From Escherichia coli phage NG_A1, in sequence record LC788705.1: a stretch of DNA of 64,000 nt, one strand, 5' to 3'. A program made the position numbers and the translations under genes. The notes below the pieces were generated by a model that was not told the DNA's origin, did not search any database, and was given only the letters and a program-made list of their open reading frames with translations. Numbering within the stretch: position 1 is the first letter of the stretch; every line of letters starts with the position of its first letter. This document shows, piece after piece, positions 1-42,944 of this stretch.

Positions 1-200
1 ATGAGAATGATTCTCATTTAAAAAGCGGAATGAGAATGATAATAATTCGCATTTAAGAATGGAAGTGAGAATTATTCAGGAAGTGAAACGATTCTCATTT
101 AAAAAGCAGAATGATTCTCATTTAGAAAGTGGAACGCAAATAATAGTGATTCGTATTTAAGAACGGAAGTGAGAAACACTATTATTTAAGTTATCCACAG
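1..200. repeat. Cluster of near-palindromic GAGAAT(G/C)ATTCTC units plus a ~55-bp imperfect tandem direct repeat (approx 26-85 and 140-200)
   Basis: Palindrome copies read at 3-15 and 108-120, half-sites at 32-40 and 89-97; two ~55-bp units align at ~80% identity. Confidence 0.7.
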
Positions 201-300
201 ACTTATTAACAGCACGATTTGACTTGACAGAATCCTAGCCATTTTGGGGTGTTATTAACAGACTTATCCACAGCTTATCCTACTGTATAAATATACAGTA
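181..300. repeat. Inverted-repeat arm A (~120 bp) carrying DnaA boxes
   Basis: Reverse complement of 4321-4440 aligns over ~120 bp with scattered mismatches; TTATCCACA at 191-199 and 264-272. Confidence 0.8.
191..272 (+). promoter_or_regulatory. Two consensus DnaA boxes (TTATCCACA) at 191-199 and 264-272
   Basis: Exact 9-mer matches to the E. coli DnaA box consensus TTATNCACA. Confidence 0.6.
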
Positions 301-2975: not shown

Positions 2976-3040
2976 TAGTTAGCCTCCTATTAATTAACAA
3001 GGGAATAGTAAAGCGGGGTAACAATCCCCGCTTAATATTA

Positions 3041-4058
3041 TTACTCGCTTTCGGTGTTAGTGGTAAAAGTAGAAATATCGATACCTTTTACCATTTCATC
3101 AATCATTTCAGCGATGTTAAAACTTTGCACCATTTCCAGCATTGCCGCTTCCATAGCCGCCCCTGCTACCGCTTTCGCCTTTTGGTTATTTGGGGCGTAT
3201 TGGTCAACCGCTACACTCAGCAGGTTAGCAATCACTACTCGACCAATAGGCGTATCGATATAACCTTTGATCATGAATGGTGCTTTTTTAGCCGCTACTT
3301 TCGTAATTTGAGTTAATGCAATTTTACCCGCCTCCAGTTTTGCAGCATTTACAACAGCGGATTTATTGGCGGCAACAATGTTAGCAATCTTGGTCATGGT
3401 GTTTTTTCCTTTGTTTTCAGTAGTTTGAGTGTTAACGCTTTGAGTGTTAGAATTTACAGCATGGTTTTCTACGCTGTCAATAATCTGATCTTCATCTTTC
3501 CAGAAAGAAAAACCAGCGCTTTCTATATCCCCATCATAAATATATGGGTATAGCTCCCGTGGTAACAAAAAATTACCGTCGTCATCAAAAGCCATTATAC
3601 CAGTATATTGAGATCCGTCGTTATCCGGCTTATGCCATCCAGCTGGTAAATACTTCCAGATAACATCTAAAAATCCCTCAATACTAGAAAGTCCGTTTAT
3701 CAGATCAAGCCCAATAAGCTCAAAACCATTTATATTAAATGATTGACGGCCTGAATTGCTATGATACGCAACAATATTATTACCCTGCGCAATAATAAAA
3801 TCGGTATCCGGCCCCGCTCCCCTGCCTGTAAAGATATGGCAATCCCGATTATATATATAAAACTAGCGTTGCCCCTTGCTTATATAATGGTAGAAAACTA
3901 TCCATATCATAGGCGTCATAATCATCAAAAAAGTTTTGATGAATAGTTTCAGCCTTGTTAATAAAATGTTTAATGCTGGTTGACTTGCTACCGTCCAGCA
4001 GGTTGCGCAATGCACCTTTTAAAACGGTGGCATTATCAGGTTTATACAGCCTCATTTG
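3041..4058 (-). CDS. Hypothetical pre-early protein, apparently interrupted by a +1 frameshift near 3849-3865 (fused product ~340 aa)
   Basis: Track ORFs 3849..4199 and 3041..3595 are joined by an 89-codon stop-free, start-less stretch (3596-3862) in the frame of the downstream ORF; strong GAGGGAGG RBS before ATG at 4058. Confidence 0.4.
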
Positions 4059-11786: not shown

Positions 11787-13544
11787 ATGGGTTTTTTCGC
11801 TGGAAAATATAGCGATGGTAAGACCGTACTATCCTTAAATACTGAATCTGGTGGTGACATTAATCGTCACTATAGTCCAAATAATAATAGTATTTTTCAT
11901 AGTGATATGCCATTTGTTCTAGTTGATGGTACTTATGAGGTAGGATTAGGTGATGCCGGGAATGGGTTTTTCGTATGTCAGATGCCTCCTGATATAGTAA
12001 ATATTAAATCTAATGATCCTGGTAGAGTTATACTAACTGCTATTGAAATTAACGGCACTCACAGAGCTTTTCTTAATGGTACTCAGAGTAAAGTTGGTCA
12101 AACTATAGTTGCCACTCAAGCAGATCCCTTTAGATCTTTTGCTAGTGTTTCTCAAACCAGTGGATTTGCCTTTGGTAATAGTCTAGCATCCGGCACTTAT
12201 AATTATAATCCCTCTCTAGGGCACGAAGAATCTATCTCTAGGAGTGGTACAGGGGGTACTACGTTACATAGTACCTACCATGGGATAGTTAGGCCCGGTG
12301 CGGGAGCTCCTGTAGGTATTACTGTTGCAGAAGCTTTTGCACAATTAGGTTTTCCTATTAATAGTAGCACAGTACCTATAGATGGCAATAACCCGTACTA
12401 TTGGGATCCTGGATGGATATCACCTCTAGGAGCAGCGCATAGAGGGCATGATTGGTTTTATGTCTGCAATTCTAATATACGTGGATATGGTGGGGTTAGG
12501 CAAGGGCTCCCAGGTAATGTAAATACTATGTACCACGACGGTGGGAACAGATTTGTTTGTAGGGGATCTACTACTAATCTGGCCAACCAGTCTGGCAATC
12601 CTACGGTAATACAGGACTGGTATAATATAACTCCTACTAAGGTTATTTGGTATGTTCTTAATTTAAGGTACTCTAATAGTGGAATGAGTATTTCAGGCAA
12701 CCCCTTTACTGGTTCTGATATTCTTATATCTCCTTCTAATTTCATAATTAAAGGGGTAAGTCTCCCTAATACCGGGTATAAATTTATAAATCAGAATGCT
12801 TTTGGTAACCTAGGTTACCGTCCTGATATGGAGTATATAGGAAATAACGCAGCGTATACCGGGGTTTTTGGGGATACCACGGCAAGGTGTGAACTTGTAG
12901 GGTCTAGTAATGGAGGAGTATGGTCTCCTGTAGACTATGGTGGAGCTAAATCCCAAATTAGCATTTACAAATTCGGAGCTGGTAAGCAATGGTATGTAAA
13001 CTCTAGGGATAATACTATCGGTAATGAACACGGGGTTGTTTGGGGACCATCAGCAGTTCCATTACGACTTTTTGGTGGAAATGTAGGTAGTTCTTATATG
13101 GGAGATGATATTACTCCCAGCTACCCAGGAACGGGTGATAGATACGTTGGTTTATCAACTATTGGGCTAGGTATACCGGGTGGCAATGCTACAGTAATTC
13201 TTACCACTGAAGTTATATCAGGTAACCTTAACTGTGCAGGTGTTCCTGCTAATACATGGAATAACGGTGTGTTTCAAGTGCAAGGAAGAAGAGCATATAG
13301 CTATAGCGGCGGGGATGCAATATTCCACCAGATTTTAACGCTACCTGTGGGCTATCTAGTACCTTTTCATACTACATCTGCTTTTAGATATACACCTAAC
13401 AATGCTCTAAGTAGAAACAGTTTTATATACACTGTTAAAAATTTAGGAAATGGAAATGTAGAGTTAGGAGTAGTTATGCACGTGAGTTTGGGTAGTGCAG
13501 TTTTCCTACCTAGATTAAGAGTAACAGTTCAACGCCTTACCTAA
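11787..13544 (+). CDS. Receptor-binding tail protein, pb5/Oad-like (585 aa)
   Basis: N-terminus [41 protein letters not shown] resembles the T5 pb5 N-terminus as I recall it; divergent pairing with llp; Gly/Asn/Ser-rich. Confidence 0.6.
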
Positions 13545-13554
13545 AGGAGGAAAT

Positions 13555-14037
13555 ATGGCAAATGATGTATTAGTACCAGATCTTATGTCCCCTGAAGGGA
13601 TGGATGTGATTGAAGCTTATTTACAGTGTGGCAGCGATGCGCCTGCCGCAGCACGTAGTCTTGGAATGTCTGAAATTGCTTTCCGAGATATTATGAATCG
13701 TAGTGAAGTTAAGAACTACTTAAATGATATTTTTATGGAGAGTGGATTCCGTAATAGGGATCGTTTGTTTGGTGTTCTAGATGAAGTTATTAAACGTAAA
13801 CTAGAGGAGCTAGAAGAAACCGGCATGGGTTCTGACCAAGATATTATGGATATTCTATGGAAAGCTCACAAAATGAAGATGGAAGAAATGAAAATGATGG
13901 TGGAGTTAGAGAAAGCTAAAGCCGCCGCTCGAGCTCCTGCTAATCAGACCAATATTCAGAATAACATTATTGCTGGAGCTGGGGACCAAAACTACATGGA
14001 CTTAATTACTTCCCTAGCTACTGGAGGTAAGAAGTAA
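13555..14037 (+). CDS. Terminase small subunit (160 aa)
   Basis: N-terminal HTH-like segment [17 protein letters not shown]; directly upstream of the large terminase with abutting stop/start. Confidence 0.55.
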
Positions 14038-15353
14038 TGGAAGTGTCAAGACCCTATGTTAACACAGTAGATGTTATTGATTTCGGTATAGATAAACGTT
14101 TCTTTCGTCTACCTGTTTCTGGAATACTGGCGCAAGAAGGTATTACACCTAATGGTCCTCAAATAGCAATTATCAATGCGCTAGAAGATCCTAGACATCG
14201 TTTTGTAACGGCATGTGTATCGCGCCGTGTAGGTAAATCCTTCATCGCATACACACTTGGGTTCCTAAAATTGCTGGAACCTAATGTGAAAGTGTTAGTA
14301 GTTGCTCCTAACTACTCACTGGCCAACATCGGATGGTCTCAGATTCGTGGCCTTATTAAAAAGTACGGCCTACAGACCGAACGTGAGAACGCTAAAGATA
14401 AAGAGATTGAGTTAGCTAATGGTTCTCTATTTAAACTAGCTTCCGCGGCTCAGGCTGACTCCGCAGTTGGACGTTCATATGATTTTATCATCTTTGATGA
14501 GGCGGCAATTTCCGATGTGGGTGGTGATGCCTTCAGGGTTCAGCTGCGTCCTACCCTAGATAAACCTAATTCTAAGGCTCTATTTATTTCCACCCCTCGT
14601 GGAGGTAACTGGTTTAAAGAGTTTTACGCCTACGGATTTGATGATACGTTGCCTAACTGGGTATCTATTCATGGTACATATCGTGATAACCCACGTGCCG
14701 ACTTGAATGATATTGAGGAAGCACGTCGTACAGTTAGTAAAAACTACTTCCGCCAAGAATACGAGGCTGACTTCTCTGTATTCGAAGGACAGATATTTGA
14801 TACCTTTAATGCTATCGATCATGTTAAAGATCTCAAAGGTATGCGTCACTTCTTTAAAGATGATGAAGCATTCGAAACGTTGCTTGGTATTGACGTTGGT
14901 TATCGTGACCCTACAGCAGTTCTTACTATTAAATATCACTACGATACGGATACTTACTATGTGTTAGAAGAGTACCAGCAGGCGGAAAAAACTACAGCCC
15001 AGCATGCTGCTTATATTCAGCATTGTATAGATCGTTATAAAGTTGATCGTATTTTTGTTGACTCTGCCGCCGCTCAGTTCCGCCAGGACTTAGCTTATGA
15101 GCATGAAATTGCATCGGCTCCAGCTAAAAAATCTGTCCTAGATGGCCTAGCATGTCTGCAGGCATTATTCCAACAGGGTAAAATTATTGTAGATGCCTCA
15201 TGTTCCTCCTTAATTCATGCATTGCAGAACTATAAGTGGGACTTCCAAGAAGGTGAAGAGAAATTATCACGTGAAAAACCACGTCATGATGCTAACTCTC
15301 ACCTTTGTGATGCGCTCCGCTATGGAATTTACTCTATTTCCCGTGGTAAATAA
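14037..15353 (+). CDS. Terminase large subunit (438 aa)
   Basis: Walker A-like SRRVGKS, Walker B FIIFDEAA, C-terminal nuclease-type acidic motifs; GGAGG RBS. Confidence 0.85.
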   Translation: MEVSRPYVNTVDVIDFGIDKRFFRLPVSGILAQEGITPNGPQIAIINALEDPRHRFVTACVSRRVGKSFIAYTLGFLKLLEPNVKVLVVAPNYSLANIGWSQIRGLIKKYGLQTERENAKDKEIELANGSLFKLASAAQADSAVGRSYDFIIFDEAAISDVGGDAFRVQLRPTLDKPNSKALFISTPRGGNWFKEFYAYGFDDTLPNWVSIHGTYRDNPRADLNDIEEARRTVSKNYFRQEYEADFSVFEGQIFDTFNAIDHVKDLKGMRHFFKDDEAFETLLGIDVGYRDPTAVLTIKYHYDTDTYYVLEEYQQAEKTTAQHAAYIQHCIDRYKVDRIFVDSAAAQFRQDLAYEHEIASAPAKKSVLDGLACLQALFQQGKIIVDASCSSLIHALQNYKWDFQEGEEKLSREKPRHDANSHLCDALRYGIYSISRGK

Positions 15354-15362
15354 ATAAGTATA

Positions 15363-15410
15363 GGATGGGATACTACTCAGTTGGTATCCCATTCCTGTAT
15401 TTTAAAATCC
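15363..15410 (+). terminator. Intrinsic terminator after the terminase gene
   Basis: Hairpin GGATGGGATAC...GTATCCCATTCC followed by a T-rich tract. Confidence 0.5.
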
Positions 15411-15524
15411 CCTTTACAAATTCGATACGATTATGTATACTATATTCATTGATCGGGAGAACTTCTCCCATAATAGAACGTAAACAAGAAAAATTAATGC
15501 TCTACATGGGGTGTAGGAGATTCT

Positions 15525-16199
15525 ATGGGTCGACAAAAGCTAACAATAAAAGATATAAATATTAGATTAGCTGATCGTGGAATCCAAATTGTCGGTGAGT
15601 ATGTAAACCAACGTACAAAAACAGTATTTAAATGCCAGAGAGCACATGTTTGGGAAGCAACACCACATTCTATACTCCATATGGGGAGAGGTTGTCCACA
15701 CTGCTCCAATAATACAATATCGTTAGATGAAGTTAATAACAGAATATCTAATATAGGGTATACTCTGTTAAGCAGCTATACTAATGCTAAAACAAAACTA
15801 CATCTACGCTGCAATAAGGGGCATGACTGTTTAATTACCTTAGATGGATTGACTCAAGGTAAGAGATGTCCTTATTGTTCTCTTAAGTGGGAGAATGGCG
15901 GATTCCTCTATATCATGTCCTCCTCTAGTGGTACTAAAGTAGGCATAAGCTTATACCCTGAGAAACGGCTGAATGAAGTTAAAAGAGAATCTGGATTTTC
16001 TGACCTATACTTGTTCACCATGTATCATCTGCCAGATAGAGAGACTGCTTTAGATTTAGAAAAGGAAGTTCACAGAGAATATTATAATAAAAACTGTGGG
16101 TTTTCTAATTTTACAGGAAGCACGGAATTTTTTAATGTTGCTCCTGAGGATATAGTAATCTTTCTAAGTAGCTTTGGATTGGAGGATTATGGCCACTAA
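15525..16199 (+). CDS. T5orf172/GIY-YIG-like domain protein with N-terminal zinc-ribbon repeats, putative homing endonuclease (224 aa)
   Basis: Repeated CPHCS/CPYCS motifs; C-terminal GFLYIMSSSSGTKVGIS resembles the T5orf172 core. Confidence 0.55.
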   Translation: MGRQKLTIKDINIRLADRGIQIVGEYVNQRTKTVFKCQRAHVWEATPHSILHMGRGCPHCSNNTISLDEVNNRISNIGYTLLSSYTNAKTKLHLRCNKGHDCLITLDGLTQGKRCPYCSLKWENGGFLYIMSSSSGTKVGISLYPEKRLNEVKRESGFSDLYLFTMYHLPDRETALDLEKEVHREYYNKNCGFSNFTGSTEFFNVAPEDIVIFLSSFGLEDYGH

Positions 16200-16626
16200 T
16201 ACTAAGTACAAACGTGATGCCATTTCCATAATGAGGGATGGTATAAAATCTAGGTATAGTAAGGATGGTTACTGTGCTATATGTGGTAGTAGTGAAGACC
16301 TAGAACTTCACCATTATCATACTATATCTCAGCTAATAAAAAAATTTGCTAAAGAACTCCAGCTGGATTTCACTGATGAGAATATCGTCCTTTCAAATAG
16401 GGAAGCATTCTACAAGAAATATGAGCATGAGTTAGTTAGGGACGTGGTAACATTGTGCCAGCACCATCACCAATTATTACATAAGGTTTACACAAAAGAA
16501 CCTCCTTTATTTTCTGCTAATAAGCAAAAAGCGTGGGTTCAAAAGCAGAAAGACAAATTACAGAATCCTCAAGAAAAGACACAAGTCAAGACTGAAACAA
16601 AATCAGGATTCGCAAGGTTCTTATAA
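16174..16626 (+). CDS. HNH endonuclease (150 aa; real start may be the internal ATG at 16189)
   Basis: Motifs CAICGSSEDLELHHYH and CQHHHQLLH; stop overlaps the portal start. Confidence 0.7.
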   Translation: MDWRIMATNTKYKRDAISIMRDGIKSRYSKDGYCAICGSSEDLELHHYHTISQLIKKFAKELQLDFTDENIVLSNREAFYKKYEHELVRDVVTLCQHHHQLLHKVYTKEPPLFSANKQKAWVQKQKDKLQNPQEKTQVKTETKSGFARFL

Positions 16627-17843
16627 TGGGTTTAAAAAGCTGGATTACTGAAAAGTTAAATCCGGGTCAACGTATTATAAGAGACATGGAACCAGTTAGT
16701 CATCGCACTAACCGTAAGCCTTTTACCACTGGACAAGCCTACAGTAAAATTGAGATTCTCAATAGAACTGCTAATATGGTTATAGATAGTGCGGCGGAGT
16801 GTTCTTATACTGTCGGAGATAAATATAATATTGTTACGTACGCTAATGGCGTCAAAACAAAGACTCTAGACACTCTCTTAAATGTACGACCTAATCCATT
16901 CATGGATATAAGCACATTCCGTAGACTTGTAGTCACTGACCTACTTTTTGAAGGTTGTGCATACATCTATTGGGATGGCACATCGCTTTACCATGTCCCG
17001 GCTGCTCTTATGCAGGTCGAGGCAGATGCCAATAAGTTTATCAAAAAGTTTATATTTAATAATCAGATAGACTATCGCGTAGATGAGATTATCTTTATAA
17101 AGGATAACAGTTACGTGTGTGGCACAAATTCTCAAATTTCTGGACAATCTCGTGTTGCTACTGTTATTGATTCTCTTGAAAAGCGTTCTAAGATGCTTAA
17201 CTTTAAAGAGAAATTCCTCGATAACGGAACCGTGATTGGTCTTATTCTTGAGACGGATGAAATCCTGAACAAGAAATTGCGTGAGCGTAAACAAGAAGAA
17301 TTACAACTCGATTATAATCCTAGTACGGGTCAGTCTTCTGTCCTGATTCTAGATGGTGGTATGAAAGCTAAACCGTACTCCCAAATATCCTCTTTTAAAG
17401 ATCTAGACTTTAAGGAAGACATCGAAGGATTTAATAAATCTATTTGTCTAGCCTTTGGAGTTCCGCAAGTACTGCTTGATGGTGGTAATAATGCGAATAT
17501 TCGACCAAACATCGAACTGTTCTATTACATGACTATCATCCCTATGCTGAACAAGCTGACTAGTTCTCTTACTTTCTTTTTTGGTTATAAGATTACTCCT
17601 AATACTAAGGAAGTAGCTGCATTAACACCAGATAAAGAATCTGAGGCTAAACATTTAACCTCATTGGTTAATAATGGTATTATAACTGGTAACGAAGCTC
17701 GTTTAGAGCTGAACCTTGAGCCTTTAGATGATGAGCAGATGAATAAGATTCGTATTCCTGCTAACGTCGCTGGTTCTGCAACAGGCGTATCCGGTCAAGA
17801 AGGTGGTAGACCTCAAGGTTCCACCGAGGGAGATAAAGAATGA
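16626..17843 (+). CDS. Portal protein, pb7-like (405 aa)
   Basis: Size and position between terminase and protease/capsid genes. Confidence 0.7.
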   Translation: MGLKSWITEKLNPGQRIIRDMEPVSHRTNRKPFTTGQAYSKIEILNRTANMVIDSAAECSYTVGDKYNIVTYANGVKTKTLDTLLNVRPNPFMDISTFRRLVVTDLLFEGCAYIYWDGTSLYHVPAALMQVEADANKFIKKFIFNNQIDYRVDEIIFIKDNSYVCGTNSQISGQSRVATVIDSLEKRSKMLNFKEKFLDNGTVIGLILETDEILNKKLRERKQEELQLDYNPSTGQSSVLILDGGMKAKPYSQISSFKDLDFKEDIEGFNKSICLAFGVPQVLLDGGNNANIRPNIELFYYMTIIPMLNKLTSSLTFFFGYKITPNTKEVAALTPDKESEAKHLTSLVNNGIITGNEARLELNLEPLDDEQMNKIRIPANVAGSATGVSGQEGGRPQGSTEGDKE

Positions 17844-41105: not shown

Positions 41106-42944
41106 TTATTCTAAGTAGGAAAATCCTTCTGCATCTTTTTTGACAGTAATCTTATGAGCTAATGGATGCGTATGCCCATGAGAAACAATGATAGAATTTA
41201 GACTTTCTTCCTCATTTAATAGCTCAACGAGAGTATCAAGTCCTTTCGTATCAATAAAGCTAATTACTTCATCAAGGAATAGAAGATTAATATTAACTTT
41301 ACTAATAGATGTTAACAGCATCCGAATAGCTAACAGGGTTGCTAGATTAATTCGACTTTGCTGACCAGTAGAGCAGTTTTCCATACTGGTACGGTTTCCA
41401 TCATTGAAGATTACTACTTGTAATTTAGTTTCATCTAGTTCAAATCCAAGTGCGAATTTACCGCCAGTCATAATAGAAAGATATTTATTAATTAGCTCTT
41501 CAAATACTTTCACACTATGCTCTAGTTTATATCCAACCAGATTTTTCAATGCAGCAATTAGAATATCGAGATCAGCAACAGCTTCTGATACTCCATCCAG
41601 TTTGGAAGTAATCTCAGACATTTCTGCCTCAGCTTTCTCAATCTGTTCTAGTTTCGCCTTATATTTTGCATTGGCTAACTCAATATTTGCATTATGTTCT
41701 TTAGCAATTGCAACCTTAGAACGTCCATCAGCTATTTCCTGTTCTAATTGTCGGATTTGCACCTGTAGGATTTGCACATTGAGTTCTTCAAAAGAAGCAT
41801 CACTCATTGAATTTTTGAACTCGTCTCTAGCTACCACTGCCTTATCCAAAGCATCCTTTGCTCTAGTATACGCAACGTACTCAAGTTGTTCCTTCTTCAA
41901 CTGTTCTAGCTTAGCTTCAAGAGATTGCTTCTCTTTGAACAGAGGATCATATTCTACTCTAGCCATATCCATTGCTTTTTGAGCAGTAGTTGTATCCAGG
42001 TGAGTACCACAAGTAGGGCATTCAGTATTTGAAGCCTCTTGCTTGAACTTCTGATAACGTTTCTTAACTTCGCTCGCACGTGAGGTCACAATCGTTAGGT
42101 CACGCGTAACACTCGAGATCTCTTCATTTTGGTCGGTGGGCGCGGGCAAATTTTTGAAAGGTTCGAAAGATTGTTCGGCAACTTGTACAGCTTTGTCCAA
42201 ATTACGCAACTTAGTAATATTAGCCTCTTGAGACTTGGCTAATGCCGCCTTAATTTTCGATTCAGTAAGTTCTTGTGCTAATGGCTCTTCATCAAACTCC
42301 GGTACTTCTACAGGTTCCTGCAAAGTTCCTAGATTATTTTTCCCATTAAGGATTTTCGTAATTACAGCCATCTGGCCCTGCAAATTATTTAAGGTATTTG
42401 CTATTTCTTTACGGTCGGCCTTAATAGTTTCCGACATTTCTTTGTATTGCTCTTGATTGAACAAGTTAACAAGAAACGCTTTACGTGTTGCATCCGTTGC
42501 TTTTAGAAAGTCTAGGTTGGAACCCACTGATTGATAAATCAGTTTGGTGAATGTTTGAAAGTCACCACCCATAATCTCTTCAATCATCTTGTATGTTTGG
42601 GTTGCAGTATGCCCGCTAATATCTTCCCCATTCTTAATCAACGTTACTTTAGCAGTTGACTTGACAACTTTATGCAGCTCATACTCATCATCATCTTTTG
42701 AAAAGTAAGCGTGCATATCGTATTCTTTCTTGGGGGCATTCCAAGAGAATAATGCATCTTTCTTAATACCACGTGAGTTCTTGTTATAAAACAATTCCTC
42801 GATAACCGTAGCGATGGTGGATTTCCCTAGCCCATTGCCACCAATTAGTTGAGTAACGGGATTCTTATCGAAATGAATTACGATGTCCTTACCGTAAGAC
42901 ATAACGTTACTAAATTTTAGTGTCTTAATTGTAATCTTTGACAT
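41106..42944 (-). CDS. SbcC/Rad50-like ATPase (613 aa from ATG; track ORF extends to a GTG at 43025)
   Basis: N-terminal Walker A GGNGLGKST, long coiled-coil, C-terminal LFLDEVISFID Walker B. Confidence 0.8.
   Translation of the reverse strand: MSKITIKTLKFSNVMSYGKDIVIHFDKNPVTQLIGGNGLGKSTIATVIEELFYNKNSRGIKKDALFSWNAPKKEYDMHAYFSKDDDEYELHKVVKSTAKVTLIKNGEDISGHTATQTYKMIEEIMGGDFQTFTKLIYQSVGSNLDFLKATDATRKAFLVNLFNQEQYKEMSETIKADRKEIANTLNNLQGQMAVITKILNGKNNLGTLQEPVEVPEFDEEPLAQELTESKIKAALAKSQEANITKLRNLDKAVQVAEQSFEPFKNLPAPTDQNEEISSVTRDLTIVTSRASEVKKRYQKFKQEASNTECPTCGTHLDTTTAQKAMDMARVEYDPLFKEKQSLEAKLEQLKKEQLEYVAYTRAKDALDKAVVARDEFKNSMSDASFEELNVQILQVQIRQLEQEIADGRSKVAIAKEHNANIELANAKYKAKLEQIEKAEAEMSEITSKLDGVSEAVADLDILIAALKNLVGYKLEHSVKVFEELINKYLSIMTGGKFALGFELDETKLQVVIFNDGNRTSMENCSTGQQSRINLATLLAIRMLLTSISKVNINLLFLDEVISFIDTKGLDTLVELLNEEESLNSIIVSHGHTHPLAHKITVKKDAEGFSYLE

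Follow-up and report, generated by a model that had tools for sequence, protein, structure and literature searches.

A conserved nicking endonuclease and a sporadic, putative homing endonuclease gene at the terminase-portal junction of a T5-like Escherichia coli phage

Two nuclease-like proteins are encoded between the large terminase and portal genes of Escherichia coli phage NG_A1, which raises the question of whether both genes are mobile elements lodged in the packaging module or whether one of them belongs to it. We analysed the 64,000-nucleotide stretch of DNA from sequence record LC788705.1 (hereafter the window), which belongs to a Tequintavirus. The 2.4 kb around the locus share 97.7-98.5% nucleotide identity with phage T5 and many Tequintavirus genomes, and the TerL protein is 100% identical to T5 TerL. 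The original prediction, made from the letters of the window, was that two different homing-type endonuclease genes had been inserted at this junction, an interpretation that proved half right and is partly supported. We consider it probable (roughly 85%) that the two nucleases are of unequal standing, with a core nickase gene, sciA, next to the portal gene and a free-standing selfish homing endonuclease gene, the homologue of T5.154, in front of it. The features discussed are collected in Table 1.

Table 1. Features of the terminase-portal region and the nick site in the NG_A1 window (positions count from the first letter of the window).
Feature	Position	Strand	Remarks
terS	13555-14037		left of terL
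terL, large terminase subunit	14037..15353	+	Pfam Terminase_6N/6C, phrog_2
Terminator-like hairpin after terL	15356..15402	+	stem 15363-15394, then T-run
Sigma-70-type promoter TTTACA-17-TATACT	15413..15441	+	10/12 matches; upstream of insertion point
Insertion relative to empty-site allele, 739 bp	15450..16188	+	alignment with OSYSP and S133
T5.154 homologue, 224-aa ORF	15525..16199	+	between terL and sciA
sciA, T5.153 homologue, 145 aa	16189..16626	+	between terL and portal
5' 273 nt of sciA, travelling with the putative homing gene	16189..16461	+	71% identical to insert-free allele
Portal protein gene, right neighbour	16626..17843	+	Pfam Phage_portal 5.6e-50
GGCGCGGG, matching T5 major-nick consensus R/GCGCRGG	42139..42146	+	inside D13/SbcC-like gene

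The second gene is sciA, encoding the site-specific nicking HNH enzyme of phage T5. A phmmer search of the PDB with its protein retrieved entries 9QGV and 9QGX ('Nicking endonuclease') with an E-value of 5e-94 over residues 1-145 at about 98% identity, the chief difference being H42, replaced by Q or A in the active-site mutants that were crystallised. Foldseek placed the AF2 model of the NG_A1 protein (pLDDT 86) on these entries with TM scores of 0.96-0.97 and an rmsd of 1.3 Å, under the titles 'SciA(H42Q/H42A) endonuclease from Escherichia phage T5 in complex with 10 bp DNA (GCGC sequence)' (released 2026-03-25); beyond 9QGV and 9QGX, Foldseek gave insignificant matches only (Cap5, E at least 1). 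Besides the identity of about 98% over 145 residues and the predicted fold (TM 0.97), the protein of the window shares with T5 SciA (T5.153; PF26848) H42, the zinc ligands and the position between terL and the portal gene, and one annotated T5 nick site is kept in the window; it differs by few substitutions, e.g., Y28 in NG_A1 versus C28 in T5. The gene is also named sciA in the DT57C record, as a 'nicking site-specific endonuclease', and other records have 'nicking endonuclease'. Full-text literature searches turned up no article devoted to SciA or to the nickase of T5, and our sources are GenBank and PDB titles and a discussion from 2012 (PMC3517423).

An open reading frame from 16174 to 16626 does exist, as the original prediction had it, but 16174 is merely the start of the longest TTG-started frame. 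We place the start of sciA at the ATG at 16189, since it is preceded by GGAGG and since T5.153, IrisVonRoten bas32_0004 and the construct used for crystallisation share this start (MATNT). The assignment of the product to the HNH class is borne out by an invariant motif set, but not by a match to a Pfam HNH model. The HNH / His-Me finger pattern CxxC...E-L-H-H...CxxHHxxxH, comprising C29, C32, E39, H41, H42, C90, H93, H94 and H98, is kept without change in 37 homologues, the most distant at 41% identity. Searches of Pfam (in a copy without PF26848) and NCBIfam returned no match, PF26848 is the precomputed label on all SciA homologues, and PHROG gave weak 'HNH endonuclease' matches (7e-8). SciA would act as an HNH (beta-beta-alpha-metal) nickase, its fold held together by the CxxC...CxxH zinc site and its catalytic histidine being H42. 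It would cut one strand late in infection at R^GCGC-type sites, and so give rise to the single-strand interruptions found at fixed places in the virion DNA of T5-type phages.

PMC3517423 describes sciA and sciB as late-region genes controlling the single-chain interruptions of T5, and gives the consensus of the major nicks as 5'-R/GCGCRGG-3' (citing Rhoades 1984 and Rogers et al. 1979). T5 record AY543070 carries a 'major DNA single-chain interruption' at 78573/78574, which maps to 42139/42140 of the window, where 121 of 121 nucleotides are identical. Because GGCGCGGG coincides with this annotated interruption, enzyme and substrate are both present in the window, and SciA is predicted to nick the plus strand between 42139 and 42140 in NG_A1. 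The motif RGCGCRGG is not enriched, with one match in the window against 2.4 expected; since this count does not exceed chance, the assignment of the nick site rests on the annotation of the T5 record. The nick at 99.5% in the T5 terminal repeat lies outside the window, the start of which is about 40 nt short of it.

The distribution of sciA is that of a core gene. By tblastn, sciA was found in 899 phage records (901 places, 898 copies full length), nearly always once per record, and a T5-type TerL in 907 records with an equal genus breakdown, so that about 99% of the phages with a T5-type terminase carry sciA. These phages infect Escherichia, Salmonella, Klebsiella, Proteus, Providencia, Aeromonas and Erwinia, and 356 of them are Vibrio phages. 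The order terL-sciA-portal was present in all 79 IMG/VR loci in which the flanks are present, with TerL identities from 100% to 47%, and no sporadic or mobile distribution (empty sites, varied loci) was found for sciA among the 899 records. We conclude that sciA belongs to the terS-terL-sciA-portal packaging block as a core late gene, and that the sporadic, putatively selfish insert is the first gene only, the second being the conserved and already crystallised SciA.

The first gene exists as the predicted open reading frame of 224 aa, and the T5orf172 domain and zinc ribbons ascribed to it were confirmed by matches above the Pfam cut-offs to CapR (E-value 1.4e-9), the treble-clef zinc finger DUF4379 (7.9e-9), MUG113 (1.1e-8; 35.9 bits against a gathering cut-off of 22.3) and T5orf172 (3.4e-8; 34.4 bits against 20). 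In PHROG, it matches phrog_681, 'endonuclease' (4e-60). The protein has two zinc ribbons, each C-x3-H...C-x2-C with conserved ligands (C37/H41/C57/C60 and C96/H100/C115/C118), which probably constitute a DNA-binding module. Among 15-17 homologues with identities of 20-54%, residues Y129, K138, G140, R148, E179 and E201 do not vary, as expected of an active site of the GIY-YIG superfamily, and catalysis is predicted from these residues. The AF2 model of the protein has a pLDDT of 90.5, and the sole match of the full-length model in a Foldseek search of the PDB was a weak one to the GIY-YIG nuclease Slx1 (probability 0.90, E 0.39, 85 columns); phmmer of the protein against the PDB gave nothing meaningful. 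The family is large, with 13,700 cluster representatives at E-values up to 1e-3, and tblastn searches of the window with this protein and with SciA detected no additional copy of the two genes.

The protein is 97% identical to T5.154 of phage T5, which is 277 aa long in the T5 reference record and starts inside the terminator hairpin. In the window, the N-terminal extension of T5.154 is lost through a fourth G (at about 15509-15512), which leaves the 224-aa form shared with IrisVonRoten and Sugarland. We rejected the 277-aa reading because a single base within a G-run decides it and because its start would lie within the hairpin.

Alignment with the genomes of OSYSP and S133, in which the site is empty, shows the first gene to be part of an insertion with exact junctions. 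The window and these genomes have identical sequence across the end of terL, the terminator hairpin and the sigma-70-type promoter, as far as ...TATATTCAT at 15449. After this point, the empty allele has the 18 bp ACAGTTGAGGAGAACACT, which carry the native ribosome-binding site of sciA, followed by the sciA ATG; the 739-bp insert takes the place of these 18 bp. The site is occupied in about 83 of 448 close relatives and empty in 339 of 440 matching records (with probe coverage of at least 80% required). Copies at least 90% identical at the terL-sciA locus are found in 78 records only, and the remaining 355 matches, all with less than 60% identity, come from other loci or from unrelated phages, whose hosts include Dickeya, Campylobacter, Listeria and Streptococcus. 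The claim of an insertion thus holds for the first gene, with its empty sites and exact junctions, but not for the second.

A decayed remnant of the first gene is present in DT57C, in which the ATG has become ACG; codons 2-48 are preserved there, and what follows them is scrambled or deleted. In a second genus, Sugarlandvirus, phage Sugarland carries a copy that is 53% identical at the equivalent place, overlapping the start of sciA, and the site is empty in vB_Kpn2-P1, so that the presence/absence polymorphism extends to this genus. A distant metagenomic T5-like contig contains in its terL-sciA gap a DUF723 plus T5orf172 gene (20% identical) that again overlaps the start of sciA. In two further contigs of this kind, the gap is taken up by the gene of a protein of 519 aa that has HTH, zinc-ribbon, REase_MTES_1575-like and Mom-like regions, and in another two by a receptor-binding-protein-like gene. 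The proposed homing hot-spot is upheld in so far as it concerns the terL-sciA gap, where distant relatives have other nuclease-like genes.

The first gene fits a free-standing homing endonuclease gene because of its presence or absence at a fixed site, its decayed copy, its divergent paralogues elsewhere and its intact catalytic residues, from which cleavage and homing are predicted. Its absence from 77% of close relatives, together with its decay in DT57C, indicates that the gene is dispensable. Free-standing GIY-YIG homing endonucleases of the Seg type in phage T4 (SegA-G) are known for the co-conversion of flanking markers. The first gene resembles them in being free-standing, in its position between essential genes, in its GIY-YIG superfamily membership and in its flanking donor tract; it differs in its reversed domain order, with N-terminal zinc ribbons and a C-terminal nuclease, and belongs to the T5orf172 branch, with cleavage again a prediction. 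In such a scheme, the zinc ribbons would bind DNA and the T5orf172/GIY-YIG-type domain would cleave, in a co-infecting relative, the allele that lacks the insert, and repair off the insert-bearing genome would copy the gene into the cut relative. T5orf172 homing genes have been described as abundant in T5-like phages, clustered near terminase genes and furnished with CapR-type zinc fingers (Barth, Dunham and Seed 2023; PMC10448857). The T5orf172 genes of T5-like and ICP1 phages treated there share with the NG_A1 gene the CapR-type zinc ribbons, the C-terminal T5orf172/MUG113 region, the terminase neighbour and the sporadic occurrence.

The insert also occupies a defined place with respect to transcription signals. 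The hairpin predicted upstream of the gene pair is indeed present, with a stem of 13 pairs, a loop of 6 and the T-run tail CTGTATTTTA; its dG is -25.3 kcal/mol (z = -6.2 versus shuffled sequences). Its sequence is unchanged in T5, DT57C, OSYSP and S133, and Sugarlandvirus has a hairpin of other sequence at the equivalent place. The sigma-70-type promoter downstream of it is kept in alleles with and without the putative homing gene, and a promoter is annotated at this site in the BF23 and AY692264 records; it is probably functional. Transcripts would stop at the terL hairpin and start anew at this promoter. As the insert lies upstream of the sciA start codon but downstream of the promoter that serves sciA and portal, it would be transcribed from that promoter, and in NG_A1 the putative homing gene would be read first, followed by sciA and portal via overlapping stop and start codons. 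The stop of the first gene overlaps the start of sciA by 11 nt, and the overlap of the sciA stop with the portal start, noted in the original prediction, is found as TAATG at 16624-16628 with 1 nt shared. The 3' end of the insert would provide a new GGAGG ribosome-binding site for sciA.

The insert is linked to a diverged tract at the 5' end of sciA. Between the window and OSYSP, the left flank (15237-15449) has 100% nucleotide identity, terL 95% (dS 0.25) and portal 97.8% (dS 0.09). Within sciA, identity is 71% over nucleotides 1-273, with 79 mismatches, a saturated dS (>5) and a dN of 0.20, and 96% over nucleotides 274-438. The allele of the window recurs at 98-99% identity in T5, IrisVonRoten and DT57C, the last with its remnant, and the other allele is found in OSYSP, BF23 and S133. 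In the Markadamsvirinae loci sampled from IMG/VR, an insert or remnant always occurred with the diverged sciA allele or a variant of it, and an empty site always with the common allele. Sugarland and Kpn2-P1 likewise are about 67% identical over sciA nucleotides 1-150, with near-identical flanks. Considering this linkage in Tequintavirus and Sugarlandvirus, we take the mobile block to consist of the insert plus the 5' part of sciA, from 15450 to about 16461.

These observations suggest that the diverged tract was acquired by co-conversion from a distant donor, and/or that the 5' part of sciA contains a cleavage site which the diverged allele escapes. A column-by-column comparison of 18 insert-free with 12 insert-bearing or remnant alleles revealed scattered fixed differences and no contiguous block in sciA or the empty site; in the absence of such an allele-fixed block, we propose no cleavage target. 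The accessible text of PMC10448857 reports no cleavage site for the T5orf172 family and makes no mention of a linkage to a diverged sciA tract. A more specific version is that the T5orf172 endonuclease targets the 5' part of sciA, and that homing drags in the diverged core of the protein (codons 1-91, with CxxC and HH), repeatedly swapping it between lineages; we put this forward very tentatively, as an unlikely but specific possibility. Ordinary mosaic recombination among T5-like lineages, unrelated to any endonuclease activity, could also have produced the diverged tract, and we regard this as just as doubtful. Phage genomes are mosaics, the end of the tract differs by genus (273 nt versus about 150 nt), and no target-like block emerged from the allele comparison, all of which would agree with such recombination; it is less easily reconciled with the perfect insert-allele linkage in the sampled loci, with an association that arose in two genera and with a diverged tract that adjoins the insert exactly.

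Other explanations concern the standing of the two genes themselves. That both are mobile homing endonuclease genes invading the terminase-portal junction, as first proposed, would agree with the nuclease motifs typical of homing enzymes in both proteins and with the weak PHROG matches of the second, but we find it scarcely credible: the universal conservation of sciA (899 records against 907 for TerL), which the original prediction itself had set down as counter-evidence, contradicts its being a homing insert, the gene occurring nearly always as one copy per record and without exception flanked by terL and portal, even at 47% TerL identity, as does the identity of its product with the crystallised T5 nickase. 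It is somewhat less improbable, though still quite unlikely, that SciA serves chiefly as an accessory to the terminase, like proteins of the HK97 gp74 type, and is needed for the cutting of genome ends, with nicking as a by-product. SciA resembles HK97 gp74-type proteins as a small HNH protein encoded in a packaging module, it lies within the terS-terL-portal block in every relative, and the small terminase is named 'probable sciB protein' (DT57C) or 'SciB protein' in GenBank records; cooperation of an HNH protein with terminase is established for HK97 (cited in PMC10448857). On the other hand, T5 mutants without nicks are viable (Rogers et al. 1979, as summarised in PMC3517423), which argues against an essential role. 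Moreover, SciA lacks a sequence match to Pfam HNH families, no sequence relationship with the gp74 type was detected in Pfam or NCBIfam, and SciA is documented as an enzyme that nicks at GCGC sites, the nick-site sequence contained in its solved complexes. As to the first gene, it might no longer home and instead be a domesticated or decaying passenger, e.g., a CapR-like DNA-binding regulator, or a marker-exclusion weapon against co-infecting phages that does not copy itself. CapR-type zinc ribbons are used by a repressor encoded on PLE satellites (PMC10448857), the gene is in an operon and translationally coupled to sciA, and the 90-100% identity of its Tequintavirus copies makes vertical inheritance within one clade possible. 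We nevertheless hold such a loss of homing to be improbable, given the invariance of the catalytic residues Y129, K138, G140, R148 and E201, the absence of the gene from most close relatives and its decay in DT57C, and a polymorphic site in a second genus where the copy is 53% identical. A core nickase gene accompanied by a selfish homing endonuclease gene is therefore the reading that we prefer.

Since the second gene encodes a known and conserved enzyme, the terminase-portal locus of NG_A1 is largely ordinary and already known; both components are of kinds already known, and the structure of SciA has been solved. The main value of the analysis is the correct annotation of the nuclease genes between terminase and portal. 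In many GenBank records sciA is still a 'hypothetical protein' or 'HNH endonuclease' and the first gene an 'endonuclease', and filing both as homing endonucleases would mistake a core enzyme for a parasite. The sole point that may be new is the linkage, in two genera, of the insert to a synonymously saturated 5' two-thirds of sciA, which offers a concrete case from nature for testing co-conversion, or immunity of the target site, near a homing gene of the T5orf172 family. If the endonuclease does drive the exchange of this part of sciA, the swapping of the core could alter the preference for nick sites or the nick pattern among T5-like phages, e.g., between those of the T5 type and those of the BF23 type.

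In the T5 reference (NC_005859), the T5orf172 homologue T5.154, located between terL and the HNH endonuclease gene sciA, is annotated as a 277-aa protein (locus L001, 3566-4399) with a start 12 nt past terL, within the terminator hairpin. The G-run at window 15509-15512 is one base longer in the window, IrisVonRoten and DT57C than in this reference and, because of the extra base, the N-terminal extension is broken in all three. A 224-aa form starts at window 15525 and is preceded by an AGGAG ribosome-binding site. This shorter form probably represents the real gene; the annotation in the T5 reference is probably over-extended.

The same gene persists as a remnant in DT57C, in which the start codon ATG has become ACG. 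Identity is 100% over codons 2-48, after which the sequence is divergent, with ~320 bp of deletions. The insert-linked sciA allele is still present beside this decayed copy. In Salmonella phage SP01, the homing gene occurs as a variant (89% identical), and the sciA 5' allele linked to it is a third one, differing at many sites from both the T5-type and the BF23-type alleles; the 3' third of sciA is conserved again. Therefore, at least three insert/sciA-5' haplotypes are in circulation.

Features detected in the window and in the terL-sciA region of T5-like relatives (L-numbers, loci compared with the window)
Feature	Location	Remarks
Motif AATGATTCTCATTTAAAAAGCGGAATGA, ~28 nt	window, within 1-530	six copies, at window opening
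Long inverted repeats	window 1-19 vs 495-513	100% complementary
DnaA-box-like elements GTTATCCACAG	window 190-213 and 251-274	two
T5 major-nick consensus match GGCGCGGG	window 42139-42146 (+)	fits R/GCGCRGG; within D13/SbcC-like gene
Decayed T5orf172 gene	L003 (DT57C, NC_027356) 2326-2843	not annotated in record
Third sciA 5' allele	L019 (SP01) 3001-3435	
519-aa ORF between terL and sciA	L045 469-2028; L066 1316-2875	IMG/VR metagenomic T5-like contigs
Distant T5orf172 + DUF723 genes	L076 771-1667; L078 2235-3008	
687-aa ORF between terL and sciA	L041/L042 817-2880	receptor-binding-tail-protein-like (cf. window 11787-13544)

The T5 records AY543070 and AY692264 annotate a 'major DNA single-chain interruption' at the position of the nick-consensus match (121/121 nt identical), and the site is also kept in the insert-free OSYSP (99.5% conserved). 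The T5 terminal-repeat nick (T5 121279/80) falls ~40 nt outside the window start, and the first 530 nt of the window resemble the repeat-rich first-step-transfer/injection-stop region of T5.

Other genes were detected in the terL-sciA region of relatives. The 519-aa ORF combines an HTH at its N terminus with zinc ribbons (a weak DUF4379 match), a weak REase_MTES_1575-like region and a Mom-like C-terminal region slightly below the cut-off (26.8 bits); the ORF could represent another mobile gene, of nuclease or modification type, at this hot-spot. In some Proteus/Providencia-type relatives, the gap is occupied by the 687-aa ORF, the T5 equivalent of which is located upstream of terS. The distant T5orf172 + DUF723 genes share 20-23% identity with the T5orf172 gene of the window, one overlapping the start of terL and the other that of sciA, and thus the overlapping stop/start architecture recurs across independent lineages.
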